Shown piece after piece: positions 13,652 to 64,000 of a stretch of 64,000 nucleotides of DNA; position 1 is the first letter of the stretch; each line of letters starts with the position of its first letter. This stretch comes from an uncultured Planctomycetia bacterium (GTDB lineage: Bacteria > Omnitrophota > Gorgyraeia > Gorgyraeales > Gorgyraeaceae), in NCBI GenBank assembly GCA_964415355.1, contig CAYPYS010000006.1, positions 752-64,751 of the forward strand. Reading direction: 5' to 3'. Under the pieces are notes generated by a model. The model made no database searches, was not told where the DNA came from, and was given only the letters and a program-made list of their open reading frames with translations. The position numbers and the translations under genes are program-made.

Positions 13652-13685
13652 GTAGTTTAAAGATGTGGGCCTCGCTTCGTTTATT

Positions 13686-40258: not shown

Positions 40259-40292
40259 GTTTACATTTTAACGTTGTTGAAATGTAAACTTG
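40255..40292. repeat. 41-bp palindromic element, copy 10 (slightly truncated)
   Basis: ctaagtttacattttaacgttgttgaaatgtaaacttg; provides TAA stop of upstream gene. Confidence 0.85.
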
Positions 40293-40296
40293 TCTT

Positions 40297-43314: not shown

Positions 43315-43337
43315 CGATTATGAGAGTGGGAATGACA
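43292..43337. repeat. REP2 copy plus partial second copy
   Basis: gattcccgcttttgcgggaatgacg ... gggaatgaca. Confidence 0.85.
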
Positions 43338-43441
43338 GTAAAAGAAAATAGATACTCCTGTGTCTATATATAAGAGAGGGGGTGAATTAAAGAGGTTGAT
43401 TTTTAAAGTCAGATGGCAGTATAATGCACAGGAGGAGAGCT

Positions 43442-43858
43442 ATGAAAAAAGATACTGGGAAAAAGACAATGCTAAAAGAAATCAAAGGCTATATTGATTC
43501 ATCATTAAAAGAAATCAAAGGATATGTTGATTTATCATTAAAGGAAGTCAAGGGATATGTCGATTCATCATTAAAGGAAGTCAAAGAAGAATTACAAGAG
43601 ACCAAGAGATATACGGGAGTTTTGGTCGAAGGTCTGCGGTCAGAGGTCAAGCTGGTGTTTGAGCAATATGGTACTGTTATAAGAAAGCTCGAGGATCATG
43701 ACAGAAGGTTTGATGAGATTGATAGAAGGTTTGAGAATATAGATGTTAGATTTAACTGCGTTGATCTTGAGCTTAAAGGTATGAAGACGGCATTGTTTGA
43801 CAATAGCCATAGGCTTAATGACCATGAGGGCAGGATCAGGAACTTGGAAATGAATTAA
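43442..43858 (+). CDS. hypothetical coiled-coil protein with 3x tandem 10-aa repeat (SLKEIKGYVD)
   Basis: aggagga RBS then ATG; 30-nt tandem repeats at about 43490-43580; no recognisable family. Confidence 0.4.
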   Translation: MKKDTGKKTMLKEIKGYIDSSLKEIKGYVDLSLKEVKGYVDSSLKEVKEELQETKRYTGVLVEGLRSEVKLVFEQYGTVIRKLEDHDRRFDEIDRRFENIDVRFNCVDLELKGMKTALFDNSHRLNDHEGRIRNLEMN

Positions 43859-43860
43859 TG

Positions 43861-43885
43861 GATTCCCGCTTTCGCGGGAATGACA
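43861..43885. repeat. REP2 copy
   Basis: gattcccgctttcgcgggaatgaca. Confidence 0.9.
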
Positions 43886-46637: not shown

Positions 46638-47701
46638 TGAAAATAGGGATAGATATTCGTCCGACACTCAAGAAGACAACAGGCATAGGCAAGTATACCC
46701 TTCATCTGATCAATGCCCTTGCAGAAGTAGATCCCGAAAATAGATATTTTCTCTACAGCAGAAAAAAGATATTGGATTTTAAAAGGCGGTTGCCAAGGTT
46801 GCCCGGCGCTAATTTTTCGCATCGCGTGGATCATTTTAAAAAAGGCGTGAGTGCAGCGATGCCGGAGATAGATATTTTCCACACCTCTTCTTATGACCTG
46901 GATAGGCCGAAAAAGGCAAAATATATCGTCACTGTCCATGATGTAATTATAAAGGCATATCCGCACGGCCATAGCGAGAAGACTATAAGAGAAACAGATG
47001 AAAAATTAAAAAAGATTTTAGGCGAGGCAGATGTGTTGGTGGCGGATTCCCATAGCACCAAAGCGGATCTGATGAGGTTTTATGATGTGGCCGAGTCAAG
47101 GGTAGCGGTAATCTATCCCGGAGTTAATTTTACGGAATACGGAATACGGGATGCGGAATGCGAAGACTATATTCTCTTTGTCGGGACGCTTGAGCCGCGA
47201 AAGAATGTAGATGGAGTCATAAAGGCGTATAGCTGGCTGAGAAAAAACTCAGGCGTGAGGCATAAGCTTTATATAGCGGGCATGAAGGGATGGATGTACG
47301 AAAATATTTTTAAGGAATACGAGAAGAGCGAATTTAAAAAAGATATTATCTTTAAAGGTTATGTAAGCGAACGAGAACTGAGCGCGTTGTACCAGAATGC
47401 GTCTTTATTCGTGTATCCGTCCTTTTATGAAGGTTTCGGGTTTCCTGTGATAGAGGCGTTTAGCTATGGAGTACCTGTTGTTACTTCGAAGACTTCTTCT
47501 TGCGGAGAGGTAGCAGGCGATAACGCATTATTGGTAGACCCTTCTAATATAAAGGAGATTAGAGAAGCAATGGCAAGACTCATTGCCGATAAAAACTTAA
47601 GGGAGCAGCTGGCGAGGCGCGGCCGAGAGAGAGCGAAGCAATTCACCTGGCGCAACACCGCCTCCGCCTTAAGTATACATTTCAACAACGTTAAAGTGTA
47701 A
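46637..47701 (+). CDS. glycosyltransferase GT4
   Basis: YPSFYEGFGFPVIEAFSYGVPVV; last 10 codons lie inside a 41-bp element. Confidence 0.7.
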   Translation: MKIGIDIRPTLKKTTGIGKYTLHLINALAEVDPENRYFLYSRKKILDFKRRLPRLPGANFSHRVDHFKKGVSAAMPEIDIFHTSSYDLDRPKKAKYIVTVHDVIIKAYPHGHSEKTIRETDEKLKKILGEADVLVADSHSTKADLMRFYDVAESRVAVIYPGVNFTEYGIRDAECEDYILFVGTLEPRKNVDGVIKAYSWLRKNSGVRHKLYIAGMKGWMYENIFKEYEKSEFKKDIIFKGYVSERELSALYQNASLFVYPSFYEGFGFPVIEAFSYGVPVVTSKTSSCGEVAGDNALLVDPSNIKEIREAMARLIADKNLREQLARRGRERAKQFTWRNTASALSIHFNNVKV

Positions 47702-47707
47702 AGTTAG
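47668..47707. repeat. 41-bp palindromic element, copy 11 (subfamily 2, tatac/ctaac variant)
   Basis: cttaagtatacatttcaacaacgttaaagtgtaaagttag. Confidence 0.85.
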
Positions 47708-47709
47708 GG

Positions 47710-47734
47710 GATTCCCGCTTTCGCGGGAATGACA
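47710..47734. repeat. REP2 copy
   Basis: gattcccgctttcgcgggaatgaca. Confidence 0.9.
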
Positions 47735-47743
47735 TTTTTCGCT

Positions 47744-48253
47744 ATGATACATATTTACACGGGTAATGGAAAAGGGAAGACTAGTGCGGCGTTTGGGCTG
47801 GCAATGAGGGCAAGCGGCCAGGGGCTCAAGGTCATTATATTTCAGTTTCTAAAGCCAAAGGAGATTGTGTCAGGCGAAGAGATCTCAGCAAAAAAGCTAA
47901 AGGGTTTAAAAGTGGTAAGATTTGACCAGGCGCACCCTATATTTAAAAATAAAAGCGAAGGCGTAAATAAGACTATAGAAGAAGATTTCGAAAAAACAAA
48001 AAAGGCTGCTTTAAGCGGTAAATACGATATGGTGGTGCTTGATGAGATCATCAATGTCGTGGACCAGGGTTTTATAAAAAAAGATAGTTTTATTAGTTTG
48101 CTAGGATCCGTTCCAGGGAAGTTAGAGTTAATCCTTACGGGCAGAGGTGATACTTTAGGGATAGAGGAATATGCGGATTATGTGACCGTAATGACAGATA
48201 AAAAACATCCTTTTAAAAAGACAACAGACGCACGGAAGGGTATAGAGTATTAA
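47744..48253 (+). CDS. cobO: cob(I)yrinic acid a,c-diamide adenosyltransferase (CobA/CobO/BtuR type)
   Basis: MIHIYTGNGKGKTSAAFGLAMRASG P-loop and overall 170-aa size. Confidence 0.8.
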   Translation: MIHIYTGNGKGKTSAAFGLAMRASGQGLKVIIFQFLKPKEIVSGEEISAKKLKGLKVVRFDQAHPIFKNKSEGVNKTIEEDFEKTKKAALSGKYDMVVLDEIINVVDQGFIKKDSFISLLGSVPGKLELILTGRGDTLGIEEYADYVTVMTDKKHPFKKTTDARKGIEY

Positions 48254-48263
48254 GGTTTTTTTG

Positions 48264-48303
48264 CTTAAGTATACTTTTAACATTGTTGAAATGTATACTT
48301 AAG
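48264..48303. repeat. 41-bp palindromic element, copy 12 (compensatory tatac variant)
   Basis: cttaagtatacttttaacattgttgaaatgtatacttaag. Confidence 0.85.
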
Positions 48304-48313
48304 GATTTTTTAA

Positions 48314-48342
48314 TTGACATAGCTGTAAAATAGTTGTATAAA
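48314..48342 (+). promoter_or_regulatory. sigma70-like promoter TTGACA-17-TATAAA
   Basis: read directly; located immediately upstream of the riboswitch. Confidence 0.45.
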
Positions 48343-48359
48343 ATAAGAAACCGAATATA

Positions 48360-48560
48360 TATTATATTGTTTAAGGGAAGCTGGTGTGAGTCCAGCGCAG
48401 CCCCGCTGCTGTAATAGGGTACGAAATCTGCAAAAAGTCATTGTCCTGGAGATTTAGGACGAGAAGGCGCAGAGATTAGAGCGATCCTTAAGTCAGAAGA
48501 CCTTGCAATGTGATCTTTAAAAAGCTACGCAGGGTAGCTTTGAGGGCCAAGTAAATCAGG
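48360..48560 (+). promoter_or_regulatory. cobalamin (AdoCbl) riboswitch
   Basis: GGGAAGCTGGTGTGAGTCCAGCGCAGCCCCGCTGCTGTAATAGGG core and AGTCATTGTCCTGGAGA B12-box-like segment; upstream of btuF. Confidence 0.7.
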
Positions 48561-48565
48561 GTGCA

Positions 48566-48600
48566 ACCCCGACTAAAAAAGTCGGGGTTTTTTATTTTGT
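48566..48600 (+). terminator. riboswitch expression-platform intrinsic terminator
   Basis: ccccgactaaaaaagtcgggg hairpin followed by ttttttatttt. Confidence 0.65.
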
Positions 48601-48606
48601 GATAAT

Positions 48607-49452
48607 ATGAGAAGATTTTTTATTATTAAATTTTTAATAATGTTTTTTCTAGCTTTTAGCAGCTATTCCTTTTCTTCGGAAGGCAAAAGGTTGAGGGTAG
48701 TCTCGCTTGCGCCGTCTACTACTGAGATATTGTTCGCGCTGAGGCTGGATGAGGAGATCGTAGGTGTAAGTTCATTCTGTAATTATCCCTTAAAAGCTCA
48801 GGAAAAAGATAAGATAGGGACTTTTAGCCACCCAAACATTGAAAAGATCCTGTCTCTAAAACCAGATATTGTGTTTTGTACAGGGCTTGAGCAGGCGCCT
48901 GTGATCAGTAAGTTAAAACAATTAAATCTGGAGGTCTTTGTCAGTGATCCGCAGAACATAGAAGAACTTTTTGATTCGATCAGGGATATGGCCGTGCTTA
49001 CAAGTCGCAGCAAAGAAGGCAAAGAGTTGATTAATAAAATGAAAAAAGGTGTAGAAGAAATAAGGTCAAAAACAGAGTCTATTCCAAAAGAAGACAGGGC
49101 GAGCGTTTTTATAGAATTTTGGAATGATCCCTTGATGAGTGCGGGTGATAATTCTTTTATCGGCGAATTGATCGCATTGGCTGGAGGCATAAATATTGCC
49201 CATGACGTTAAGAGACCTTATAGTTATTTTAGCCCCGAAGAAGTAATAAAGCGCAATCCCGATCGCATCATTCTGGCTTATATGGTCAATGAAGACGCGG
49301 CAAAGACAATAAGAAAACGCCTGGGCTGGAAAGATATATCAGCGGTTAAAAATAATCGCGTATATAGCGATGTTGATCCTGATATGCTTTTGAGGCCTGG
49401 ACCGCGTTTAGTAGAAGCCCTAGGGGAGTTATATAAAAGGCTATACCCGTAG
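48607..49452 (+). CDS. btuF: periplasmic cobalamin-binding protein of ABC transporter (BtuF/TroA-like)
   Basis: signal peptide; RVVSLAPSTTEILFAL...IVGVSSFCNYP. Confidence 0.75.
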   Translation: MRRFFIIKFLIMFFLAFSSYSFSSEGKRLRVVSLAPSTTEILFALRLDEEIVGVSSFCNYPLKAQEKDKIGTFSHPNIEKILSLKPDIVFCTGLEQAPVISKLKQLNLEVFVSDPQNIEELFDSIRDMAVLTSRSKEGKELINKMKKGVEEIRSKTESIPKEDRASVFIEFWNDPLMSAGDNSFIGELIALAGGINIAHDVKRPYSYFSPEEVIKRNPDRIILAYMVNEDAAKTIRKRLGWKDISAVKNNRVYSDVDPDMLLRPGPRLVEALGELYKRLYP

Positions 49453-49476
49453 ATTCCCGCTTTCGCGGGAATGACA
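49452..49476. repeat. REP2 copy
   Basis: gattcccgctttcgcgggaatgaca. Confidence 0.9.
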
Positions 49477-49480
49477 TGTG

Positions 49481-49519
49481 TTTAAGTTTACTTTTAACAT
49501 TGTTGAAAGTAAACTTAAG
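49481..49519. repeat. 41-bp palindromic element, copy 13 (short variant)
   Basis: tttaagtttacttttaacattgttgaaagtaaacttaag. Confidence 0.85.
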
Positions 49520-49529
49520 GGAGAAAATT

Positions 49530-50480
49530 TTGAAGAAGAAAATAGTATTTTTATTTTTAATATTGTTAGGCGTTGCGTTATTAGCGGTTAGCAAGGGGTC
49601 TGTTAGCTTGACCCTTAGGGAATTATTGCTTCAGGAAAATAGAAATATATTGTATCTGCGGTTTGCGCGTATTTTAATGGCGGCCCTGGCAGGCGCAGGC
49701 CTTGCAGTCTCAGGCATAGCGCTCCAGGCTATTCTGAGGAATTCGCTTGCCGAACCTTATATCCTGGGAACGTCTAGCGGCGCTGGGTTAGGGGCTATCT
49801 TGGCTATAATTATAGGTATAGGTGCTTCATTTTTACCTGTAATAGCATTTATAGGGGCAATATTAGCCATTGTACTAGTATATAACCTGGCAAAAGAAGG
49901 GAACCGCGTCGGTGTACAATCGCTTATTTTATCAGGGGTCATCGTGTCTATAGCGTTTTCTGCCATAATAGTCTTTATGGTTTCTCTGTCGAGCAACGAG
50001 GCCCTTCACGGGATGATGTGGTGGTTATGGGGGAATTTGCAAGTGTACGATGTTAAGCACTTATTTATAGTAGGCGCTATAGTGATAGCAGGCATTATCA
50101 TGATATATATATTGGCGCAAGATTTGAATGCGATAAGCATAGGAGAAGAAGAGGCAATGCATTTAGGTATAAACGCAGAGACAGTAAAAAAGATATTGTT
50201 CGTTATTACATCCATGATCACGGCGAGTCTTGTCTCCATATGCGGTATAATCGGTTTTGTGGGGCTCATTGTCCCTCACATGATGCGGTTTATAATAGGC
50301 CCTAACCATAAGGCGCTTATTCCTGCTACTTGCGTTGCAGCCGCGATATTTATGATAACATGCGATCTGATCTCCCGAATACTTTTGTCTCCGCTGGAGA
50401 TCCCTATAGGAGTCATTACAGCTGTTATAGGCGCGCCTGTGTTTATTATTTTATTGAAGCAGAAACAGAGGATCAGGTAG
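49530..50480 (+). CDS. btuC: cobalamin/siderophore ABC transporter permease (FecCD family)
   Basis: FecCD-like polytopic sequence; TTG start after aaggga RBS; the track's longer N-terminus is repeat-encoded. Confidence 0.7.
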   Translation: MKKKIVFLFLILLGVALLAVSKGSVSLTLRELLLQENRNILYLRFARILMAALAGAGLAVSGIALQAILRNSLAEPYILGTSSGAGLGAILAIIIGIGASFLPVIAFIGAILAIVLVYNLAKEGNRVGVQSLILSGVIVSIAFSAIIVFMVSLSSNEALHGMMWWLWGNLQVYDVKHLFIVGAIVIAGIIMIYILAQDLNAISIGEEEAMHLGINAETVKKILFVITSMITASLVSICGIIGFVGLIVPHMMRFIIGPNHKALIPATCVAAAIFMITCDLISRILLSPLEIPIGVITAVIGAPVFIILLKQKQRIR

Positions 50481-51278
50481 ATGCAGTCATTGGTCAGAGT
50501 GGATAGGCTTTCAGGAGGCTATTATAAAAAACTTGTAATAAAAGATGCCCTTTTTGAGATAAAAAAAGGGGATTTTTTGGGGATCATAGGGCCCAATGGT
50601 TCAGGTAAATCAACCCTTTTAAAGTTAATGACAAGGGTCTTGTCTCCGCAGTCAGGCAGTATTTTTCTTGAAGAAAAAGATATAAGAGGCATGGGGCTAA
50701 AAGAATTTTGCAGAAAGGTAGCGTTTGTGCCCCAGGATACGCTGATTAATTTTTCATTCAGCGTTGAAGAGATAGTGCTTATGGGCAGGATCCCGCATCT
50801 CAAGAGGATGCAGTTTGAGACAAAGAAGGACTTTTCAATAGCTTGCAATGCGCTTAAGCTGACAGATACCTTATATATAAAGGAGAAGGAGATAAGCCAG
50901 CTTAGCGCTGGCGAGCGCCAGAGAGTCATAATCGCAAAGGCGCTTGCGCAGGAGCCAATGCTTTTATTTCTGGACGAACCTACTTCCCATCTGGACATAG
51001 GCCACCAGGTGCAGATATTGGATCTATTGAAGAGGCTGAATAGAGAGAGCGGGCTTACAGTGGTTATGGTGATGCACGACCTGAATCTTGCGAGCGAATA
51101 TTGCAATAGGATAATGTTGTTTGATGAAGGCCGCATTTTTAAAGAGGGGACTCCTGAGCAAGTCCTGACCTATCAGAACATAGAAGCAGTATACAAGACA
51201 GTCGTGGTAGTGAAGAAGAGCCCTGTTTCTTCCAAGCCGTACGTAATACTGGTGTCGGGGAATAAGAGCATAGCCTAA
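50481..51278 (+). CDS. btuD: ABC transporter ATP-binding protein (BtuD/FecE-like)
   Basis: GIIGPNGSGKST Walker A; LSAGERQRV signature; LLFLDEPTSHLD Walker B. Confidence 0.8.
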   Translation: MQSLVRVDRLSGGYYKKLVIKDALFEIKKGDFLGIIGPNGSGKSTLLKLMTRVLSPQSGSIFLEEKDIRGMGLKEFCRKVAFVPQDTLINFSFSVEEIVLMGRIPHLKRMQFETKKDFSIACNALKLTDTLYIKEKEISQLSAGERQRVIIAKALAQEPMLLFLDEPTSHLDIGHQVQILDLLKRLNRESGLTVVMVMHDLNLASEYCNRIMLFDEGRIFKEGTPEQVLTYQNIEAVYKTVVVVKKSPVSSKPYVILVSGNKSIA

Positions 51279-51420
51279 GTTTACGCTTTAACATTGTTGA
51301 AGTAAAACCAGAGACGTTTACCGAGCCAATCGGGAACCTGTCTCATGTTTAAGGACAGGTTCCCGATTGGCTCGGTAAACGTCTCTAAAATACTTTAACA
51401 TTGTTGAAATGTAAACTTAG
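51274..51420. repeat. composite element: two 41-bp-element cores flanking a 33-bp-arm perfect inverted repeat (13-nt loop)
   Basis: ctaagtttacgctttaacattgttgaagtaaaac | agagacgtttaccgagccaatcgggaacctgtc-tcatgtttaag-gacaggttcccgattggctcggtaaacgtctct | aaaatactttaacattgttgaaatgtaaacttag. Confidence 0.85.
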
Positions 51421-51430
51421 ACAAGGTGAG

Positions 51431-51979
51431 ATGGCGACGAGATTGATATTGATCAGACATGGTGAGACAGATTATAGCACAGAGAAGAGATATTGCGGGC
51501 TTACGGATGTATGTTTGAACAAGAGGGGCATTGAACAGGCAGAAGGACTTTGTCAAAAACTTGGCGAAGAAGACGTTGATAAAGTCTATAGCAGCGATTT
51601 GAGGCGTGCATCAGAATTTGCGAAGATAGTATTTAAGAATAAAGAAATAGAACCCGCGCCTGAATTCAGGGAAATAAATTTTGGGATTTTTGAAGGATTG
51701 ACATATGAAGAGATCATGGATAGATATGCCGAGATATATAAAAAGTGGTTAAACGAGCCATACGAGAGCGTTATCCCTGAAGGTGATAGCTTGGCCGATT
51801 TTAAAAATAGGGTACAAAAGGCATTAAAAAAAATTATCCAGCTTAATAGAGGCAAGACATTGGCAATAGTTACTCATGCCGGGCCTATAAAGATAATAAT
51901 GAGAAATGTCACAAAATCCAAAAACATATGGGATATAAACCCTGAATTAGGAGGCTTCTGGAGATGCGCGTATGAGTAA
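51431..51979 (+). CDS. cobC: histidine phosphatase family protein (alpha-ribazole phosphatase CobC-like)
   Basis: RLILIRHGETDY RHG motif; operon context with cobU/T/S. Confidence 0.7.
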   Translation: MATRLILIRHGETDYSTEKRYCGLTDVCLNKRGIEQAEGLCQKLGEEDVDKVYSSDLRRASEFAKIVFKNKEIEPAPEFREINFGIFEGLTYEEIMDRYAEIYKKWLNEPYESVIPEGDSLADFKNRVQKALKKIIQLNRGKTLAIVTHAGPIKIIMRNVTKSKNIWDINPELGGFWRCAYE

Positions 51980-52499
51980 AATCACATTTATTTTAGGCGG
52001 GGCAAGGAGCGGTAAAAGTAAGTTTGCGACAGAAGAGGCTAAGGGGATCGGGAAAAAGGTTGCATTCATCGCAACCTGTAAGCCAATGGACAAAGAAATG
52101 GAAGAGCGTATCTCTATTCATAAAAAGGCAAGGCCAGCTGAATGGCAGACTTTTGAAGAGCCGCGGGATATACCTTTATTATTGAAAAAAATGAGCCGGG
52201 GATTCGAGGTTATTATAGTAGACTGCCTGACTCTCCTCGTGTCCAATCTGTTATTAGACGGATTTAAAGAAAAAGATATCGAGGAGAATATTAACGAGAT
52301 ACTTTTTGTATTAAATAAGCTAAAGGCTCATGTGATAATCGTATCCAATGAAGTAGGATTAGGTATAGTCCCGGATAATAAACTTGCAAGAGAATTCAGG
52401 GATATTGCCGGCAGGGTGAATCAGCTAGTAGCAAAGGAAGCCAATAAAGTGTTTTTTATGACATCCGGCCTGGCTTTAAAGATAAAAGGAGAGAAGTAA
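51972..52499 (+). CDS. cobU: adenosylcobinamide kinase / adenosylcobinamide-phosphate guanylyltransferase
   Basis: [17 protein letters not shown]-loop; 175 aa. Confidence 0.85.
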
Positions 52500-53554
52500 T
52501 GAATAAAACAAAGAAAGCCATTGCAAAGATAGGAGAAGTCGATAAGGGCCTTATGGATAAGGCACAGGAGAGGCTCGATAATCTCACTAAGCCTCAGGGC
52601 AGCCTGGGTCGATTAGAGGAACTTGCAAAACTTATCGTCGGTATTACTGGAAAAGAAAATCCTATGCTTAAAAACAAGGTCATTTTTACTCTTGCGGGTG
52701 ACCATGGCGTGACAGAAGAAGGCGTGAGTGTTTTTCCAAAAGAGGTGACTCCTCAGATGGTCTATAATTTTTTAAGGGGCGGGGCGGGTATAAATGTATT
52801 GGCAAATCATGTTGGCGCGAAAGTCAGAGTAGTGGATGTCGGAGTGGATAGCGGCCTGGAGTTACATCCGGAATTAATTGTTAAAAAAATAGACTATGGC
52901 ACAAAGAATATGACAAAAGGTCCTGCAATGACAAAGGAACAAGCGACAAGGTCAATAGAGGCAGGGATAGAGGTGTTCGAAGAGGAATTCAATAAAGGTA
53001 TAGATATAGTCGGCACTGGTGATATGGGAATTGGAAATACTACGCCGAGTAGTGCCATAACAGCTGTTTTTACTGGTAAACCAGTCGAAGAGGTTACGGG
53101 AAGAGGCACTGGTGTCGATAACAGCGGTTTAAAAAACAAAATAGATATTATTAAAAGAGCTCTTAAAGTAAATAAGCCGGATCCAAAAGACGCAATAGAT
53201 GTGCTGTCAAAGGTAGGTGGTTTTGAAATAGGTGGGCTTGCCGGAATAATACTTGCAACTGCTTCGCGAAGGATCCCTGTTGTAATAGATGGTTTTATCT
53301 CAGGCGCCGCAGCGCTTATAGCGTATCATCTAGAGCCAAAGGTTAAGGATTACATGATCGCAGGGCATTGCTCAGTGGAGAGCGGACACAAGATTATCTT
53401 GCAGCATATAGGACTTGAACCCGTATTAGACCTAAATCTGAGGCTCGGTGAGGGGACAGGGGCTGCGCTCGCAATGAGCATAATAGACGCAGGCCTTAAG
53501 ATCATGACACAGATGGCGACATTTAAGGGCGCCGGAGTTTCGGAAAAATGCTAA
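52499..53554 (+). CDS. cobT: nicotinate-nucleotide--dimethylbenzimidazole phosphoribosyltransferase
   Basis: [14 protein letters not shown] and overall CobT similarity. Confidence 0.9.
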
Positions 53555-53559
53555 CGGCG

Positions 53560-53598
53560 CTAACTTTACACTTCAACAACGTTAAAGTGTAAAGTTAG
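53560..53598. repeat. 41-bp palindromic element, copy 15 (subfamily 2, ctaac termini)
   Basis: ctaactttacacttcaacaacgttaaagtgtaaagttag. Confidence 0.85.
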
Positions 53599-53606
53599 AG
53601 ATCAAT

Positions 53607-54356
53607 ATGAAAAACTTTTTATTGGCCTTACAATTTTTGACGATTATTCCTGTTAAAGTCAGGGGCGTTGAGGAGAAAGACATAGGGCGCTCGGTCGTGT
53701 ATTTTCCTCTGGTCGGGTTATTTTTGGGCCTTATTTTAACAGGCGCTAATAATCTTTTTTTGTTTCTGGGCTTCGGAGAAGTTTTTATAAATATTACCCT
53801 GGTTGTCTTGCTGATTGTCCTTACAGGCGGGATCCATATGGATGGTCTGGCTGATACTGCAGATGCCTTCCTGAGCAGAAAGAATAAAGATGAGATGCTG
53901 AGGATCATGCGTGATTCACGGATAGGCGCAATGGGCGTCTTGGCTCTTATTAGCGTTGTGCTTTTGAAAATAGTTTTTCTCTCGTGCGTAAATGTCCCTT
54001 TAAAACCCGCTTCACTTATTATTATGTGTGTTCTGAGCAGGTGGTGCTTGGTCTTTTCGCTATTTTTATTTCCGTATGCCAGGCAAGAAGGGAAAGCAAA
54101 ACTATACACAGAAAGCGCTAATTTTAGAGCACTTATTTTTTCTACGATAACTGTTTTATGCTGTGCATTTCTGTTTTTAAAAATACACGGGTTGCTGGTC
54201 TTATTGATAATAGCGATCTTAACTTACGCAATGGGACGTTTCATCGTAGGTAAGGTCGGTGGTATCACAGGAGATACGCTTGGCGCAGCAAATGAGATCA
54301 TAGAGGTGTCGGTGCTTTTTATTCTATGTTTATTGGGGAGGCTGATCTATGTATAA
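53607..54356 (+). CDS. cobS: adenosylcobinamide-GDP ribazoletransferase (cobalamin synthase)
   Basis: polytopic; MDGLADTADAF motif. Confidence 0.85.
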   Translation: MKNFLLALQFLTIIPVKVRGVEEKDIGRSVVYFPLVGLFLGLILTGANNLFLFLGFGEVFINITLVVLLIVLTGGIHMDGLADTADAFLSRKNKDEMLRIMRDSRIGAMGVLALISVVLLKIVFLSCVNVPLKPASLIIMCVLSRWCLVFSLFLFPYARQEGKAKLYTESANFRALIFSTITVLCCAFLFLKIHGLLVLLIIAILTYAMGRFIVGKVGGITGDTLGAANEIIEVSVLFILCLLGRLIYV

Positions 54357-55056
54357 TTCAGAGATAATATCATCCTGGAGCGGAGGAAAGGATAGCTGTC
54401 TTGCTTGTTATAAGGCAATCCAGGCAGGCTATAAAGTAAAACATCTTTTGAATTTTATCTCCAGGGAATCGGGTCGCGGGTGCTTTCATGGTATAGAAAA
54501 AAAACTCCTTAGGCTACAGGCAGAAGCAATAGGCATACCACTGACTCAAAAAGAAACAACAGCAGATATGAAAGAATACGAAAAAGAATTCAAGGAAGCT
54601 ATCTCAGAATTTAGAGATAAGGGCATAAATAAAATGGTCTTCGGCGACATCTATCTGGACGAGCATAAAGATTGGGTGGAGCGGGTCTGTGGAGATATAG
54701 GCATCGAGCCGCTCGAACCTTTATGGAATAAATCGCCCTTATCTCTTGTAGAGGAATTCGTGGACCTTGGCTTTAAATCGATTGTTGTCAGCTGCCACGC
54801 GGATAAATTCGAAAAGGATTTTGTGGGCAGAGTGATCGACAGGACGTTGATAGATGAATTAAAGGAAAAGAATATTTGCCCGTGCGGCGAAAACGGAGAA
54901 TTTCATACGTTTGTCGTTGACGGCCCAATGTTTAAAAAAAGAATAGATATAACAAAAAGTGAACCGGTTTTTAAAAAAGGTTTTTGGGAATATTATTTTT
55001 TGGACATCAAAGATTATGAGGTTAGAGAGAAGGGCCAGGTAGTCAAAACGAAATGA
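54349..55056 (+). CDS. PP-loop ATPase of the MJ0570/Dph6 (ATP_bind_4) family
   Basis: SSWSGGKDSCLACYKA PP-loop; GDI..DEHKDWVE; CGENGEFHTFVVDGP. Confidence 0.7.
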   Translation: MYNSEIISSWSGGKDSCLACYKAIQAGYKVKHLLNFISRESGRGCFHGIEKKLLRLQAEAIGIPLTQKETTADMKEYEKEFKEAISEFRDKGINKMVFGDIYLDEHKDWVERVCGDIGIEPLEPLWNKSPLSLVEEFVDLGFKSIVVSCHADKFEKDFVGRVIDRTLIDELKEKNICPCGENGEFHTFVVDGPMFKKRIDITKSEPVFKKGFWEYYFLDIKDYEVREKGQVVKTK

Positions 55057-56918
55057 GAATATATAGCGTAGCATTAAGCCTGATTTTCTTGTGTTTGCAT
55101 TGCTTGGTTTGCAATTTTGAAGTCGAGGCAAAAGAAGAGAATTCAGATTATTATAATATTGATTTAGAGAAGATTATCATTACCCCATCCAAGATAGAGC
55201 AGGGATATAAATACTCTACTCAAAACATAAGTATTGTCGGTAAGGAAGATATCGAAGCTAGTGCCGTTACTGAGGTAACAGAGATCCTGGACCTGTTGCC
55301 TTCAGTAGATATATTAGAGTACGGTTCTGCTGGTTCCACGAAGACTGTCCACACGAGAGGCGCTTCTTCTTCCCAGGTCCTGACCTTGATAGACGGAAGA
55401 CCTGTCAATACGCCCAGAGACGGAGTCACAGATTTTAATCAGATCCCTATTTCAAATATTGAAAGGATAGAGGTGCTGCGTGGGCCTGCCAGTAGTATGT
55501 ATGGGGCGAATGCCGTGGGAGGCGTTATAAATATAATAACAAAGAGCGGCGAAAAAAAGGCGCGCACTGAGATGCTGAATAAATTTGGCTCTTTCAATAC
55601 AAAGTTTTCCTCTTTTTCGCACGGCCGCAAGATAGATGAAATAGATTATTTTATATCCCATGATTACCTGGCTTCTCACGGCCACAGAGATAATGCTGAT
55701 TATTTAAGCAATAATGTGAATTGGAAATTCGGCTATGATCTGAATCCTGAGAATCATATGGGTCTTTCCGCAGGATATTATAATTCAGAGGCAGGTACGC
55801 CAGGGTTGCTCTCCAATACAGATCTTGATGACAGGCAGGAGAATTTTAAGAAATACATAGATTTTACTTATAACGGAAAGATGTTTGAAGGACAGGATAT
55901 TGTTTTGAAATTATTTCAGAATAGTGACAGGCTTGAATTTATAGAGACATTTGACCCTCTGGATAAAGATACTCACCATACCAAGATCTACGGATTGGAT
56001 ACCCAGATATCGCAGACTTTTTTCGATATATTTCGTACGGCATTAGGCTGCAGCTATCAAGAGCACAATCTAAATAGTTCAACCAGCAGCAAGCATACAT
56101 ATAATGCAAGGGCATTTAATTTTGAGACAGAGGTCGATATATTAGACAAAAGCACCTTGAAATTTGGCGCTCGCTGGGATGACTATTCAAATTTTGGAGA
56201 TAAGATAAGTCCGAGCGCAAGTTTTAATTTTTGGTTATTTGATAAAATAAAGGCCCATGCCTTGGCCGCCAAGTCTTTTAGGGCGCCTACCTTTAATGAC
56301 CTCTATTGGCCCAGGGAAGACTGGGGGATCTGGGGAGGAGTAGAGGGTAATTCCAGTCTTGGCCCTGAAAAGGCGGAGTCTTATGAGATTGGAATAAGCG
56401 GATATTTTTTAGAAAAGATAAAGACAGACATCACTTTGTTTAGAACAAACTTTGAGGATCTGATAGAATGGACCGTTGATGATGCCTGGTGGTGGCGGCC
56501 TCAAAATACGAGTTCTGCTGTAACAAAAGGCCTTGAGCTCGAGACAGAAGTCGTTCTAAAGGATAATCTCAAAGCCAATTTTAATTATACTTATCTGGAA
56601 TCCAAAAACAAGAACACGAGAAAATGGTTGATATATCGTCCGCGTCATTTATATAAGCTAAGATTGACATTTTCACCTTTTCCTAAATATGAACTTGGGG
56701 CGAACGCTATATTCAAGACGAAGAGGTTTGCTAATGCTGCGAATACGAGCATCCTCGATCATTATTTTATAGTAAATTCGAACCTGTCTTATAAAATAAA
56801 TGACAGCGTCAGTGTCTTATTAGAGGCTAAAAACATATTTGATAAATATTATGAGGAGGAAAGGGATTATTCAATGCCGGGCCGCGCCTTCTACACCGGC
56901 ATTAAATTGGGCTTCTAA
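55053..56918 (+). CDS. btuB: TonB-dependent outer-membrane receptor (vitamin B12/BtuB-like by context)
   Basis: signal peptide; plug VEVLRGPASSMYGANAVGGVINIITK; beta-barrel; C-terminal Phe. Confidence 0.8.
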   Translation: MRIYSVALSLIFLCLHCLVCNFEVEAKEENSDYYNIDLEKIIITPSKIEQGYKYSTQNISIVGKEDIEASAVTEVTEILDLLPSVDILEYGSAGSTKTVHTRGASSSQVLTLIDGRPVNTPRDGVTDFNQIPISNIERIEVLRGPASSMYGANAVGGVINIITKSGEKKARTEMLNKFGSFNTKFSSFSHGRKIDEIDYFISHDYLASHGHRDNADYLSNNVNWKFGYDLNPENHMGLSAGYYNSEAGTPGLLSNTDLDDRQENFKKYIDFTYNGKMFEGQDIVLKLFQNSDRLEFIETFDPLDKDTHHTKIYGLDTQISQTFFDIFRTALGCSYQEHNLNSSTSSKHTYNARAFNFETEVDILDKSTLKFGARWDDYSNFGDKISPSASFNFWLFDKIKAHALAAKSFRAPTFNDLYWPREDWGIWGGVEGNSSLGPEKAESYEIGISGYFLEKIKTDITLFRTNFEDLIEWTVDDAWWWRPQNTSSAVTKGLELETEVVLKDNLKANFNYTYLESKNKNTRKWLIYRPRHLYKLRLTFSPFPKYELGANAIFKTKRFANAANTSILDHYFIVNSNLSYKINDSVSVLLEAKNIFDKYYEEERDYSMPGRAFYTGIKLGF

Positions 56919-56953
56919 CTTTACATTTCAACAACGTTAAAGTGTAAAGTTAG
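56915..56953. repeat. 41-bp palindromic element, copy 16 (subfamily 2)
   Basis: ctaactttacatttcaacaacgttaaagtgtaaagttag; supplies TAA stop of btuB. Confidence 0.85.
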
Positions 56954-57001
56954 GCGCGATTGATTTGACAAAGCAAAGGGCAATTGTTATTATATAGACA
57001 A

Positions 57002-57661
57002 ATGTATGGCGGAAAGAGTTTTAAAATCGCGGTTTTGGTTTCTGTTTTAATCCATTCGGCGCTATTTTTTTCTATTCCTAATCTATCGTTTTTCCCCAGC
57101 AGAAGGTCTTTGGAGAATCTGAGAATCACGTATTATAAGATCAAACAGCAGCCAAAGTCAAAGACTATAGCCAGGAAAAAAGCAAAGCCAGTAGCGCAAA
57201 AACTTCCAGAGATAAAAAAAGATGAGATACTCAGGCCTCCGAGACCTGCCAGGAAAGAGGCAAAAAAGGTCAAGCGCGTGACTAGGCACGTCAAGCCTGT
57301 TGAAAAAAAGGAAGAGAAGAAGTTTGAGACAGTCATCAAAGAAGAAAAAGACGACGCCAGGAAAGCGGCATACATAAGTTATTATCGGGCAGTCAGAGAG
57401 AAAATAAAGCGATACGCTGACAGGAATTATCTAAGGAATCGCAGGCTGGGCGAAGGAGAGGTATTTTTATCTTTTGTCGTGGCTTCCAGCGGAGAGCTTC
57501 TGCATGTTAAGGTGGCTAGCGAAAGGTCTGTGGATGACCCTTTGCTAAGAAATATTGGTATAAATAGCATCAGAGATGCGAGCCCATTTTCTTCCTTCCC
57601 TAAAGGTATGAGTCAATACCAGATTACCTTTAATGTCATAATCGCATTCGAGCATAGGTAG
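57002..57661 (+). CDS. tonB: energy transducer TonB family protein
   Basis: N-terminal TM anchor, Lys/Pro-rich spacer, C-terminal TonB_C-like domain. Confidence 0.6.
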   Translation: MYGGKSFKIAVLVSVLIHSALFFSIPNLSFFPSRRSLENLRITYYKIKQQPKSKTIARKKAKPVAQKLPEIKKDEILRPPRPARKEAKKVKRVTRHVKPVEKKEEKKFETVIKEEKDDARKAAYISYYRAVREKIKRYADRNYLRNRRLGEGEVFLSFVVASSGELLHVKVASERSVDDPLLRNIGINSIRDASPFSSFPKGMSQYQITFNVIIAFEHR

Positions 57662-57670
57662 GCGCGCTTG

Positions 57671-57695
57671 GATTCCCGCTTGCGCGGGAATGACA
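57671..57695. repeat. REP2 copy (one substitution)
   Basis: gattcccgcttgcgcgggaatgaca. Confidence 0.85.
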
Positions 57696-57712
57696 AAAAG
57701 CGCAAAAAAAGC

Positions 57713-57741
57713 TTGACAAAATATCAGGTTTTGGTAAGATA
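57713..57741 (+). promoter_or_regulatory. sigma70-like promoter (TTGACA -35; TAAGAT -10) for groESL
   Basis: read directly. Confidence 0.45.
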
Positions 57742-57752
57742 GTAAAACATTT

Positions 57753-57780
57753 CTGGCACTCCTCTTGTGAGAGTGCTGAT
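57753..57780 (+). promoter_or_regulatory. CIRCE-like HrcA operator
   Basis: TGGCACTC-N9-GAGTGCTGA matches TTAGCACTC-N9-GAGTGCTAA consensus at 15/18 positions. Confidence 0.7.
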
Positions 57781-57817
57781 AACAAAAACCAATAACTATA
57801 ATCAAGGAGGTGTTGGT

Positions 57818-58105
57818 ATGGGAATACAGCCTTTAGGTGACAGGGTTCTAGTAAAAAGGCTAGAGGCAGAAGAGAAGACCAAAGGCGGCATTGTTCTGCC
57901 TGATACTGCAAAGGAGAAGCCGCAAAAAGGAGAGGTAGCAGCTGTTGGCAAGGGTAAGGTGCTTGAAAGCGGCAAGGTCGAGGCATTAGAGGTAAAGAAG
58001 GGTGACAAGATTCTTTTTGGTAAATACGCTGGCAATGAGATCACTTATAAGGATGAAGAGTATCTTATTATGCGAGAGGAAGATATTTTAGCGATATTAA
58101 AATAA
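57818..58105 (+). CDS. groES: co-chaperonin GroES
   Basis: [36 protein letters not shown]; aaggagg RBS. Confidence 0.95.
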
Positions 58106-59773
<1,668 letters not shown>

Positions 59774-59807
59774 TTTAAGCAGGTAAGAGACAAGTAATAG
59801 ACCCCGT

Positions 59808-59848
59808 TGGTAATAAACATTGCCAACGGGGTTTTTTTATTTTCACTC
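59808..59848 (+). terminator. Rho-independent terminator
   Basis: ccccgttggtaataaacattgccaacgggg followed by ttttttta. Confidence 0.75.
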
Positions 59849-59850
59849 CC

Positions 59851-59889
59851 CTAACTTTACACTTTAACGTTGTTGAAATGTAAACTTAG
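59851..59889. repeat. 41-bp palindromic element, copy 17 (subfamily 2, GTT loop; flanked by cccc/gggg and T-run)
   Basis: ctaactttacactttaacgttgttgaaatgtaaacttag. Confidence 0.85.
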
Positions 59890-59899
59890 GGGTTTTGTT

Positions 59900-59928
59900 T
59901 TGACAATAGTTATTGCCTATGATATATT
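59900..59928 (+). promoter_or_regulatory. sigma70-like promoter TTGACA-17-TATATT
   Basis: read directly; upstream of the moxR operon. Confidence 0.5.
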
Positions 59929-59976
59929 TAATGTAATTCATAGCCCCTATATTGAGTATATAAATGGAGGTCGCGC

Positions 59977-60915
59977 ATGCCAAGTCTACATGAGATCCCC
60001 CAGAAATTAATAGACAATATTTCCAAGGTAATAGTAGGGAAGCTCGAGGTCATACAGCTTGTCGTGGCAGGCTTGCTTAGCAACGGTCATGTTCTTTTAG
60101 AAGATGTGCCAGGTCTGGGCAAGACAATGCTTTCGCGCTCCCTTGCAAAATCCATAGCAGCAAATTTCAAAAGATTACAATTTACTCCTGATCTTTTGCC
60201 GTCTGATGTGACAGGCGTTTCTATATATAATCAAAAGAGTCAGGAGTTTGAGTTCAGGAAAGGACCTATATTCGCGAACATAGTGCTTGCTGATGAAATA
60301 AACCGCACGACGCCCAGGACGCAGTCAGCTCTTCTGGAGGCCATGCAGGAGTTCAAAGTGACTGTTGATGGCACGTTGAGAGAATTGCCTCGGCCATTTT
60401 TTGTCATAGCCACCCAGAATCCCATAGAATTTCACGGCACTTATCCTCTCCCTGAATCTCAAGTGGATAGATTTTTGATGCAGCTCGATGTAGGATATCC
60501 GTCTGACAAGGAAGAGACAGATATCCTGGCCAGGAATCTTAAGGAGTCTCCCCTGGAGAGATTGCAGAGCGTGGTTAAGATAGAAGAGATCGTCGAATTG
60601 CAGAATGTGGTGAGCGTGGTCCATGTCGAGAATAAAATATACGATTATATAGTCAAGATAGTTTCGACAACGAGAAATCTACCAGGCGATATTAAACTGG
60701 GCGCAAGTCCTCGCGCGTCTCTCGCGCTAATGCGCTCCGCAAGAGCCCTGGCGTTTCTTGACAAGAGAGATTATGTGATACCCGATGATGTAAAGAGATT
60801 GGCTTATCCTGTCTTAAGGCACAGACTTATATTGCAGCCGAGGTCCATAGTGCGCGGCCTTAATACCAGGGATATCGTGAATCATATATTGAAAAAAGTA
60901 ACCGCTCCGGTTTGA
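59977..60915 (+). CDS. moxR: MoxR-family AAA+ ATPase
   Basis: EDVPGLGKTMLSRSLA Walker A; LADEINRTTPRTQSALLEAM. Confidence 0.9.
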   Translation: MPSLHEIPQKLIDNISKVIVGKLEVIQLVVAGLLSNGHVLLEDVPGLGKTMLSRSLAKSIAANFKRLQFTPDLLPSDVTGVSIYNQKSQEFEFRKGPIFANIVLADEINRTTPRTQSALLEAMQEFKVTVDGTLRELPRPFFVIATQNPIEFHGTYPLPESQVDRFLMQLDVGYPSDKEETDILARNLKESPLERLQSVVKIEEIVELQNVVSVVHVENKIYDYIVKIVSTTRNLPGDIKLGASPRASLALMRSARALAFLDKRDYVIPDDVKRLAYPVLRHRLILQPRSIVRGLNTRDIVNHILKKVTAPV

Positions 60916-60919
60916 GCAT

Positions 60920-62149
60920 ATGTTTACCCCAAAAAGCATATTTCTGCTCATAGTAACCATCGCCCTCCTTGCCATTTCATGGAATACAGACATAACAATG
61001 GTGTACATTTTTTTTACAGTGACGCTTGTTATGTTTGTGCTTTCTTTTGTACACCTCCAGATCACTAAGCCTGATATAGTTATTTCTCGTGAATTATATG
61101 ACACTGCATATGAAGATGATATGCTGAGTGTAAATCTAGATGTGCATAATAAACGTGGTTTCGCTGTTCATTTTTTTGAGATCTGCGATTTTTTTCCAGG
61201 TGCTCCTTTGGATAAAAAAGAGGCGTCTTTATTTGTTTTAAAAATGGAGTCGAATGAGCGCAAAAAAATAAACTATATAACGACCTGTTACAAAAGAGGG
61301 CTCTGGAGGATCGGCCCTATATCAGTTATTTCACAGGACGCGCTCGGGTTTTTTAAGACAAAAAAGCTATTAAAGATTTATTCGGATATTCTGGTTTATC
61401 CGAGATTGTTCAGGGTATTTGCTTTTCCGCCGCTCGCGAGCGGCTCTGCGTCCTGGGTAGGCGTTGAGACATCTAAGATAAGCGGCGACAGTCATGAATT
61501 TTTTGGTATAAGGGAATACCAGCGCGGAGACATGATCAGTCGTATTCATTGGCCTTCGTCGGCAAAGCACAACAAGCTTATCGTGAAACAGTTTGAACGA
61601 AATGCTGTCCAGGAAGTGACGATAGCGTTTGATTTAAAGAAAGGCCATGACATTGGAACCGGCAGAGAGACGACGTTGGAATATGCAGTCAAGATAGCAG
61701 GGTCTATTGCGTCGTATCTTTTAAACGAAGGCGCGCTCGTGCAGATGGTCGGGTATGGCAAGGAGTCGTCGATCCTGCCTTTAGGAAAAGGTGAGTCGCA
61801 CAAGTATAAGATCCTGGAATATCTGGCAAAGATTCAGGCCGACGGCGATTTTAAACTCAGCCAGGCTCTGGATGAAGCGAGTTTTGTTGTTCCTCATCGC
61901 TCAACATTGGTGACTATTATACTGGATAATGATATAGATAGCCTGACCAGCCTTATTCAGTTTAAGGTCAAAGGTATAAAACTCATAATTATCGTGCTGG
62001 CTACTTCGACATTCGGTCCTATTGAAGAAAAGGATTTTATGGATGCGGAACGGGCCAGGAAATTTGACGAGGCCTTAGCCGGACTCGAGGCGTATGTATA
62101 CAAGATCTCCAAAGGAGAGGTCCTGGAGAAAAAGTTTGAGACACTGTAA
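60920..62149 (+). CDS. DUF58 (vWA-like, MoxR-associated) protein
   Basis: N-terminal TM helices; REYQRGDMISRIHWPSSAK DUF58 signature. Confidence 0.8.
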   Translation: MFTPKSIFLLIVTIALLAISWNTDITMVYIFFTVTLVMFVLSFVHLQITKPDIVISRELYDTAYEDDMLSVNLDVHNKRGFAVHFFEICDFFPGAPLDKKEASLFVLKMESNERKKINYITTCYKRGLWRIGPISVISQDALGFFKTKKLLKIYSDILVYPRLFRVFAFPPLASGSASWVGVETSKISGDSHEFFGIREYQRGDMISRIHWPSSAKHNKLIVKQFERNAVQEVTIAFDLKKGHDIGTGRETTLEYAVKIAGSIASYLLNEGALVQMVGYGKESSILPLGKGESHKYKILEYLAKIQADGDFKLSQALDEASFVVPHRSTLVTIILDNDIDSLTSLIQFKVKGIKLIIIVLATSTFGPIEEKDFMDAERARKFDEALAGLEAYVYKISKGEVLEKKFETL

Positions 62150-62152
62150 GTT

Positions 62153-62190
62153 CTAACTTTACATTTCAACAACGTTAAAGTGTAAAGTTA
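62153..62190. repeat. 41-bp palindromic element, copy 18 (subfamily 2)
   Basis: ctaactttacatttcaacaacgttaaagtgtaaagtta. Confidence 0.85.
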
Positions 62191-62202
62191 CGGATGTGAG
62201 AC

Positions 62203-63852: not shown

Positions 63853-63865
63853 ATACCGTTATATA

Positions 63866-63890
63866 GATTCCCGCTTTCGCGGGAATGACA
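63866..63890. repeat. REP2 copy
   Basis: gattcccgctttcgcgggaatgaca. Confidence 0.9.
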
Positions 63891-64000
63891 AAGAAGCTCT
63901 TGACTTAAAGGCGATATTGCTGTATTATACAAAAATTAAATTAAAAAAACGGAGGTAGGTACAATGGGTATGTGGGTTGGAAGGGGAAGAAAGGCTCGCA

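Follow-up and report, generated by a model that had tools for sequence, protein, structure and literature searches.

Why should a short palindrome that recurs between the genes of a bacterial genome change in sequence and still keep its two arms complementary? The question is raised by a 64,000-nucleotide stretch (the window) of contig CAYPYS010000006.1, from a genome (here W) deposited as an uncultured Planctomycetia bacterium and placed by GTDB in the Omnitrophota, in which a 41-bp element occurs in subfamilies that differ at paired positions. The initial annotation of the window had attributed the paired changes to selection on a hairpin, in RNA or in cruciform DNA, rather than on the primary sequence. 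We propose, as the probable explanation, that the element is the repetitive extragenic palindrome (REP) of one Omnitrophota lineage and the cognate substrate of an apparently single-copy, syntenic Y1/HUH enzyme that resembles the REP-associated tyrosine transposases (RAYTs). It belongs to a known kind of element, of which it forms a new lineage, and is not a novel RNA; its covariation reads as a requirement of the element's own propagation, spread by amplification and exchange between copies, and not as selection on RNA.

Repeat finding and an ungapped consensus scan define the element as a 41-bp palindrome, CTTAAGTTTACATTTCAAC-GTT-GTTGAAATGTAAACTTAAG, whose 19-bp stem, formed by pairs between bases i and 42-i, closes a 3-nt loop. 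We call canonical the orientation in which the loop reads GTT or ATT. A covariance model of the family, run with its filters off, finds 17 full and 2 degenerate copies in the 64 kb (Table 1); of these, the degenerate two included, 11 share one orientation and 8 have the opposite one. The long open reading frames (ORFs) of the window are all on the + strand, and every copy lies in a short spacer between them or overlaps ORF ends only. TAA is present in all three frames of the element, and the predicted energies of the hairpin range from -22 to -12 kcal/mol as RNA and from -17 to -10 kcal/mol as DNA. These are the features by which REPs are recognized: a short, imperfect palindrome able to form a hairpin, present in high copy number and extragenic.

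The ten copies at 3.5 to 40 kb, in a glycan cluster, are near identical, as had been noted. They form an A-type with CTTAAG at both ends in six of the ten; four have a perfect 19-bp stem, and most of the others differ by a T16 opposite G26. Two paired changes had been described between 47,668 and 62,190. In the first, aagttt/aaactt becomes aacttt/aaagtt, and G6-C36 becomes C6-G36; copies 53559, 56914, and 62152 show it in full, but 47668 and 59850 have a C6.C36 mismatch. In the second, tttaca/tgtaaa becomes tataca/tgtata, and T8-A34 becomes A8-T34; only 48264 shows it in full, and 47668 has half of it. The recurrent C/T difference does fall at position 16 opposite G26 in either orientation, but it exchanges a C-G pair for a T.G wobble, without covariation. 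Where two subfamilies had been claimed we find three, the third having an ATT loop (48264, 49481, 51274/51384); copy 49481 was absent from the earlier list, and a C13.A29 mismatch present in five copies of this range had gone unmentioned. At pair 12-30, copy 49481 has lost both partners and copy 48264 only one. Copies 47668 and 59850 resemble conversion mosaics that combine two subfamilies, and the odd arm of 47668 matches its neighbor 48264. The paired-change pattern is real, but it was tidier in the initial annotation than it is in the sequence.

From the window alone, the covariation is only suggestive: among 13 distinct sequences, 92.7% of the stem cells are paired and 8 double-change cells fall in 4 pairs, a covariation reached in 11 of 500 shuffles. 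An alignment of all copies with covariation statistics had been recommended as the check, and we aligned 117 full copies from related Omnitrophota genomes (58 haplotypes). The substitutions are not random with respect to pairing. Over the haplotypes, 94.8% of the cells are paired and 75 double-change cells fall in 8 pairs, a result that none of 500 shuffles reaches, so that the conservation of arm pairing through compensatory changes is borne out. When the partner was slid by one to three columns as a control, at most 50% of the cells paired and at most 14 double-change cells were found. The hit threshold cannot create this signal, since it counts matches to the consensus and penalizes double changes more than single ones.

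The states of individual pairs in the 117 copies show how far the changes go. Pair 9-33 is T-A in 93 copies, C-G in 18, G-C in 4, and A-T in 1; pair 6-36 is G-C in 97 and C-G in 15, with five mismatches; and pair 13-29 is C-G in 86 and T-A in 17, both intermediates between these states being present (C.A in 8, T.G in 4). Pair 16-26 is T.G in 74 copies, T-A in 32, and C-G in 10, the wobble being the majority state in every genome. The top of the stem and the loop (AAC-NTT-GTT) hardly vary in at least four genomes, and six of the 19 pairs are invariant, with five more varying only in isolated copies. Placing selection on the structure "rather than on the primary sequence" was therefore too strong: arm pairing is conserved, and much of the primary sequence is conserved too. 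Many of the double-change counts, moreover, go back to a small number of ancestral events whose copies were multiplied by amplification or conversion, and do not stand for independent compensations.

In related genomes the element adjoins a transposase gene. Six-frame translations of all loci examined, searched with a regular expression for the HUH motif, gave one match, in locus L042 of a sister metagenome-assembled genome (MAG), here called C (CAYULJ01, labeled Planctomycetia in its record), of which 298 kb were examined; tblastn with approximate sequences of IS200 TnpA and E. coli YafM as queries returned only matches with E > 0.5. The L042 ORF (1560-2351) encodes 263 amino acids, with the HUH motif NHIHLLL and the tyrosine motif (YIHHNPV; YIHHNPVRAGLV). 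The protein scores 35.6 bits against Pfam Y1_Tnp (cut-off, 23), carries a C-terminal helix-turn-helix (HTH) domain, and matches the NCBIfam model REP_Tyr_transpos (NF047646) with an E value of 1.3e-17 and 64 bits; all 35 homologues tested match that model as well, the best with an E value of 2.2e-20. Among solved structures, its AlphaFold model (predicted local distance difference test score [pLDDT], 86.7) is closest to 4er8_A, the E. coli TnpAREP on a REP hairpin (E value of 1.3e-6, target template modeling [TM] score of 0.75), followed in Foldseek by the IS200, IS608, and ISDra2 transposases (E values of 5e-5 to 1e-3).

The L042 gene is flanked by inverted copies of the element (1499-1539 and 2334-2374), the upstream copy standing 20 nt from the gene and the downstream copy containing its stop codon. 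In the C sequence examined, no 16-mers are commoner than those of these two copies (91 occurrences in 298 kb). RAYT genes are described as single copy, vertically inherited, and flanked by the most abundant 16-mers of their genome (PMC5581495), and the present element is tied to its RAYT-like gene in apparently the same manner. As in the Pseudomonas systems of RAYTs and REPINs described by Bertels and Rainey, the Y1 gene here appears to be single copy and syntenic, and so vertically inherited, and it goes with a within-genome population of repeats that has master-like subfamilies: thrC lies directly upstream in each locus examined, including L042, L109/L110, L111, and L117, and no second copy was seen in the loci examined, none of which is a complete genome. 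The protein has 1,220 homologues, and those that are named come almost all from Omnitrophota.

The repeat varies along with the gene, which it flanks on both sides in L042, L108, and L110 and on the upstream side in L117/L118. In L108, whose protein is 75% identical to that of C, copies of the TATAC subfamily stand on both sides of the gene. In L110 (51% identity), AACAAC-subfamily copies flank the gene, four of them lying within 1.6 kb, and the repeat is otherwise rare in this genome, whose sample is also that of a relative (R2); in L111 (52% identity), a different palindrome is found on both sides. Loci L117/L118, from the same sample series as the contigs of W, are 83% identical in nucleotide sequence to L042 and show, in order, thrC, a TATAC-type element with the W-type GTT loop, and a 229-amino-acid Y1 gene. 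Judging from the sample series, the level of divergence, and the loop type, this is probably W's own transposase locus. Copy 48264 of the window matches the copies that flank the transposase in L108 and L117.

On the known chemistry of this family, the enzyme would recognize a single strand of the element that has folded into a hairpin in single-stranded DNA, and would place copies in very short spacers just past stop codons; in about half of the copies the element supplies the upstream gene's stop codon. Both the mobilization of these copies by the enzyme and its choice of sites next to TAA are inferred. If only foldable copies are propagated, a change in one arm would survive in a subfamily only together with the matching change, which may be why the subfamilies differ by paired changes. 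The E. coli TnpAREP requires both the hairpin fold and a mismatch in the stem for binding (PMC3479197), and the T16.G26 wobble is likewise a conserved non-Watson-Crick position; together with the single-stranded hairpin chemistry, this gives a direct reason for conserved pairing with a conserved T.G. The copies of a genome may further exchange sequence with one another, whether through gene conversion or because the enzyme transfers strands from REP to REP, and such exchange would generate the genome- and region-specific subfamilies, half-changed mosaics, and centre flips that are observed. An effect of the hairpin in mRNA, if any, would be secondary.

Several observations weigh against this proposal. 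We found no target duplication at any assumed boundary, direct repeats of 2 to 8 nt being no commoner than in shuffled pairings, and no conserved tetranucleotide within 15 nt on either side of 118 copies, where position -1 is G in 47 and the element itself begins CTTAAG. With neither a target duplication nor a GTAG-type tetranucleotide at the hairpin foot, the chemistry of cleavage and insertion cannot be read from the sequence. B-type copies keep C13.A29, so that pairing is not strictly enforced; the elements are mostly single and not REPIN doublets; and their twofold excess in the sense orientation (67:32) is unexplained. The L042 protein does not reach the NF047646 equivalog cut-off of 80 bits, and no significant match came from searches of PDB sequences, whether the query was the protein or a profile of 35 sequences, the fold search alone leading to 4ER8. 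The 64-kb window holds no Y1/HUH gene, the assignment of L117/L118 to W relies on sample series, divergence, and loop type and not on an assembled contig, and the 229-amino-acid L117 copy is without the C-terminal HTH, its contig ending right after the stop codon. Finally, C holds about 100 copies in 298 kb, roughly 1 per 3 kb, at which density a gene may be flanked by chance, and the argument from flanking copies relies on the repeat-poor genome of L110 and on the joint variation of gene and palindrome in L111.

A bolder version, which we regard as tentative and rather doubtful, is that the enzymes form a distinct Omnitrophota clade of RAYTs, fused to a C-terminal HTH, linked to thrC, and acting on long AT-rich REPs without a GTAG guide, and that, besides seeding new copies past TAA stop codons, they catalyze REP-to-REP exchange in vivo, which would yield concerted evolution, mosaics, and centre flips. 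Such exchange has been proposed for TnpAREP from strand transfer in vitro; we know of no case documented in genomes.

The position of the copies brings in a different explanation, namely, that the element is a host-selected RNA hairpin of polycistronic mRNA, acting as a barrier to 3' decay, as an RNase III site, or as a brake on terminating ribosomes. We consider it unlikely, although the element nearly always lies between co-directional genes (104 of the 112 copies with a gene on both sides), about two-thirds of the elements start within 5 nt of the upstream stop codon or contain it, space is left for the next ribosome-binding site, and the hairpins are stable as RNA. REPs of E. coli are reported to stall ribosomes when they lie within 15 nt of a stop codon (cited in PMC12306157), which also speaks for it. 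In 47 of 99 co-directional cases the upstream stop codon is inside the element, in 34 of them exactly as the TAA at positions 3 to 5; the frames of these element-borne stops count 34, 6, and 6, where random in-frame insertion would give even numbers. The canonical strand is sense in 67 of the 99 cases (P = 0.0006), a preference that favors an RNA function; the remaining third, however, is antisense. The T16.G26 wobble, which in antisense copies becomes a C.A mismatch in the transcript at a cost of about 5 kcal/mol, is as frequent in these (21 of 32) as in sense copies (46 of 67; Fisher P = 1.0), and the orientation bias is the same in copies with a Watson-Crick pair at 16-26 and hence is not tied to RNA stability. 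We see no sign that the hairpin is tuned to the mRNA. Orientation differs between orthologous sites, and the same operon junctions work without an element in relatives, with spacers of 2 to 8 nt. In the window, only a cobalamin riboswitch passes the Rfam gathering threshold and nothing does so at the elements, and an Rfam search of the elements by E value returned only chance-level hairpin matches (E of at least 0.17). The antisense third, the indifference of T16.G26 to sense, and the centre flips described below thus go against the RNA option of the initial annotation. Intrinsic terminators were considered separately: no copy was called in a terminator scan of 46 to 64 kb, and groEL has a terminator of its own (59799-59834), upstream of copy 59850.

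Turnover and exchange of copies become visible at orthologous junctions. The first 52 loci showed no synteny with the window; syntenic loci, obtained through MoxR homologues, cover groES-groEL-moxR-DUF58-TgpA_N-IMPDH-dnaE-HU-hisS in four genomes, W, C, R1, and R2, with MoxR identities to W of 94% in C, 82% in R1, and 81% in R2. Between groEL and moxR, a copy with the same flanks is found in W and C, and the site is empty in R1 and R2; copy 59850 is orthologous to the copy at L059:2935 of C. The DUF58-TgpA junction is filled in W (copy 62152) and empty in R1 and R2, where the spacer measures 2 to 8 nt, and the dnaE-HU junction is filled in W and empty in C. The HU-hisS junction is filled in both W and C, with the centre reversed, and at the X219-groES and TgpA-IMPDH junctions C has the element and W a different, G+C-rich repeat.

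The W B-type and C consensuses differ at six positions; at the shared groEL-moxR site, the copies of W and C differ at five of these (2, 6, 20, 29, and 40) and nowhere else. A further set of 44 short metagenome contigs (J, JACKQG01), 82 to 89% identical to C and with B-type copies, gave seven sites orthologous between J and C. Pair 6-36 differs at both partners in four of these and at one partner alone in none, the bases at positions 20 and 29 go with the genome, and the block 16/21/26 is reversed in three; over all shared sites, this centre flips as a unit at four of nine. Differences at orthologous sites thus fall at the positions that separate the genome consensuses (2/40, 6/36, 20, and 29). 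Copies in orthologous spacers carry the diagnostic bases of their own genome and therefore undergo concerted evolution within it, with frequent flips of the asymmetric centre; the earlier suggestion of recent spread or gene conversion fits this. Deamination of 5-methylcytosine at AACGTT was considered as the cause of the genome-specific loop base and set aside, as it leaves the linked differences at 2/40, 6/36, and 29 unexplained.

Concerted evolution and the flipping of the centre as a unit would also be expected if the symmetry were a mutational by-product, with template switching in quasi-palindromes or arm-to-arm conversion mimicking compensation. The half-changed or mosaic copies 47668 and 59850 and the paired one-base-pair deletion of 49481, next to the one-arm deletion of the related 48264, agree with it. 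Arm correction should erase mismatches, yet T16.G26 persists in 74 of 117 copies and C13.A29 is common in the B-type; dispersal to new sites, restriction to one lineage, and the link with a transposase would stay unexplained. We judge this account improbable. Still less probable, in our view, is that the element serves as a duplex DNA site bound by a dimer, be it of a nucleoid protein, of a regulator, or of the Y1 protein through its HTH tail, and that its two half-sites must match. A near-perfect dyad, a core sequence strongly conserved across genomes, and an associated protein with a C-terminal HTH domain would suit such a site, but it is difficult to see why a regulator should have a site between almost every other gene of unrelated operons, the conserved asymmetries (the centre base and T16.G26) are unexpected for a symmetric dimer, and the same junctions lack the site in relatives.

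Set beside known systems, the proposed REP shares with the E. coli REPs, and with the bacterial interspersed mosaic elements (BIMEs) that they form, the character of a short extragenic palindrome that forms hairpins and recurs in many copies at the 3' ends of genes, and with REP/TnpAREP a Y1/HUH gene that is flanked by the repeats and whose predicted fold is nearest to 4ER8. It differs in its longer (19-bp), AT-rich, and nearly perfect stem, in having no mosaic organization, and in lacking a GTAG head at the hairpin foot, where a GTAG or GTGG tetranucleotide 5' of the foot serves as guide sequence in the REP-RAYT system (PMC3479197). Unlike TnpAREP, the L042 protein has the extra C-terminal HTH, falls below the NCBIfam cut-off, and belongs to the Omnitrophota and not to the Proteobacteria. 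Whereas a REPIN is an inverted doublet of two REPs (PMC3116915), as in Pseudomonas, the copies here almost always occur singly. The exceptions are an abutting inverted pair just outside the window (L053:17029/17067) and a 148-nt composite (51274-51421), each arm of which consists of a degenerate element plus about 34 nt of other sequence; this palindrome, with a predicted RNA fold of -98.7 kcal/mol (z = -17), occupies the space that separates an ABC ATPase gene from the next B12 gene and may be a REPIN-like doublet or an inverted duplication.

The IS200/IS605 insertion sequences (IS608, ISDra2) have the same catalytic fold, make no target duplication, and use single-stranded hairpins, the substrates expected here as well. 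In contrast to them, the Omnitrophota gene is neither multicopy nor seen to travel with the repeat, no long repeats being found among the loci examined, and there is one symmetric hairpin in place of distinct left-end and right-end hairpins. Like miniature inverted-repeat transposable elements (MITEs), such as the Correia elements of Neisseria, the element is small and noncoding, has inverted termini, lies near gene ends, and is tolerated because of the stop codons that it carries; unlike them, it has no target-site duplication outside the 41 bp, its variant termini are inverted (CTAA...TTAG), and no DDE transposase or parent insertion sequence was seen in the loci examined, where an all-against-all BLAST for a parent element or a multicopy coding sequence gave orthologous matches only. 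A TTAA or YTAR duplication is ruled out by those same variant ends, which are inverted and never direct. Two other kinds of repeat were rejected. Integron attC sites do not fit, as both orientations occur in one co-directional array (11 versus 8) and the AAC/GTT motifs stand at the tip of the hairpin and not at its base, and DNA uptake sequences do not fit a repeat scan of the window that shows no lone half-sites.

In a pattern scan that covered one genome of each species, every genome with the element was a Candidatus Omnitrophota MAG, apart from four single chance matches. Variants occur in MAGs UBA10183, CG1_02_40_15, and bin.291, the first two having forms that end in AACAAC...GTTGTT. Positions 48130 to 64000 of the window are 100% identical to a Joint Genome Institute (JGI) metagenome contig, and five other contigs of the window population, at least 99.8% identical, have the glycan-cluster elements in place and are uninformative on strain polymorphism. 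Our literature search found no paper on palindromic repeats in Omnitrophota.

To our knowledge, REP-RAYT systems have been studied almost only in Proteobacteria. If our proposal is right, the pairing of REP and RAYT reaches an uncultivated phylum, without the canonical guide tetranucleotide and with an enzyme that has an added DNA-binding domain. The family is a natural mutational scan, with changeable pairs (2-40, 3-39, 6-36, 8-34, 9-33, and 13-29) and fixed parts (the top of the stem, the loop, and the T16.G26 wobble) from which binding and cleavage assays could be designed, and the orthologous comparisons of turnover, concerted evolution, and orientation flips bear on how populations of repeats persist. 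In practical terms, the repeat breaks metagenome assemblies, and gene callers are led astray in these MAGs by the stop codons and false starts that it supplies. Contigs that start or end inside an element (L060 at both ends; L114, whose start corresponds to window position 18638) indicate that it fragments assemblies of these genomes. False start codons inside the element were picked for hisS in L059 and probably for the FecCD gene at 49476 of the window.

Table 1. Copies of the 41-bp element and neighboring features, in window coordinates
Feature	Position	Strand	Remarks
41-bp element, A-type	3588-3628	+	Perfect 19-bp stem, C16-G26
41-bp element, A-type	8186-8226	-	Perfect stem; antisense to genes
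41-bp element, A-type	10660-10700	+	Perfect stem; TAA (positions 3-5) is stop of ORF 9696-10664
41-bp element, A-type	14707-14747	+	Perfect stem; gives stop codon to ORF 13665-14711
41-bp element, A-type	17657-17697	-	C13.A29 mismatch and T16.G26 wobble
41-bp element, A-type	18637-18677	+	T16.G26; gives stop codon to ORF 17709-18641
41-bp element, A-type	20604-20644	+	T16.G26; begins 1 nt past stop of ORF 18692-20602
41-bp element, A-type	26310-26350	+	T16.G26; begins right after stop of ORF 25614-26309
41-bp element, A-type	36742-36782	-	T16.G26; antisense, C.A in transcript
41-bp element, A-type	40254-40294	+	Degenerate ends; gives stop codon to ORF 38420-40258
41-bp element, mosaic	47668-47708	-	Canonical left arm B-type (CCTAAC), right arm TATAC-type; mismatches C6.C36, T8.T34, C13.A29; ORF 46637-47701 ends inside; abuts second-family repeat at 47709-47735
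40-nt copy, TATAC subfamily	48264-48303	+	ATT loop; A8-T34 compensated; A12 deleted (1-nt bulge)
39-nt copy	49481-49519	+	ATT loop; pair 12-30 lost on both sides (paired deletion); adjoins second-family repeat at 49453-49477
148-nt near-perfect palindrome	51274-51421	+	Degenerate element copy in each arm (51274-51314, 51381-51421)
41-bp element, B-type	53559-53599	-	C6-G36, C2-G40, C13-G29 all paired
41-bp element, B-type	56914-56954	-	C6-G36 compensated; C13.A29; gives stop codon to ORF 55053-56918
41-bp element, B-type left arm	59850-59890	+	C6.C36 and C13.A29 mismatches; past groEL terminator
41-bp element, B-type	62152-62192	-	C6-G36 compensated; C13.A29 mismatch
Second REP-like family	42494-42516		
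Second REP-like family	43293-43315		
Second REP-like family	43862-43884		
Second REP-like family	47711-47733		
Second REP-like family	49453-49475		
Second REP-like family	57672-57694		
Second REP-like family	63824-63846	-	
Second REP-like family	63867-63889		
Tandem repeats	43473-43586		3.5 copies of 33 nt, inside ORF 43424-43858
Cobalamin riboswitch (RF00174)	48350-48524	+	88.7 bits; 47 nt past element 48264
Sigma-70-like promoter and CIRCE-like repeat	~57713-57775		GGCACTC-N9-GAGTGCT; upstream of groES

The window also holds a second, G+C-rich REP-like family, NT(A/G)G-ATTCCCGC-TTTC-GCGGGAAT-GAC, whose head is similar to the GTAG tag of classical REPs. Copies of this family often abut the 41-bp element (at 47709 and 49478, and also in L002, L008, and L043), and it is the repeat that occupies the two junctions of W where C has the 41-bp element.

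Other palindromes were seen in the relatives. C has a 60-nt variant of the element (L003:2643-2702 and L016:471-530 on the - strand, L046:4794-4853 on the + strand) with the same 12-bp outer stem (CTTAAGTTCACA/TGTGAACTTAAG) and a different interior that has a small hairpin of its own (GCCACGAAGTGG). A diverged copy with a 20-bp stem, ACAACTTTACACTTCTGACATTGTCAAAAGTGTAAACTTGG, lies between groES and groEL in a more distant relative (L063:8202-8244) and shows a compensated change of A17-T25 to G-C and one extra base pair. In the moxR-DUF58 spacer of C there is an unrelated 77-nt palindromic insert (L059:4001-4077), at a place where the spacer of W is only 4 nt long.

Among the remaining features of the window, the cobalamin riboswitch precedes genes for B12 transport and salvage. 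The putative promoter of groES and its inverted repeat, which resembles the controlling inverted repeat of chaperone expression (CIRCE), are kept in C and in one more distant relative, and the tandem repeats at 43473-43586 would encode an 11-residue protein repeat.

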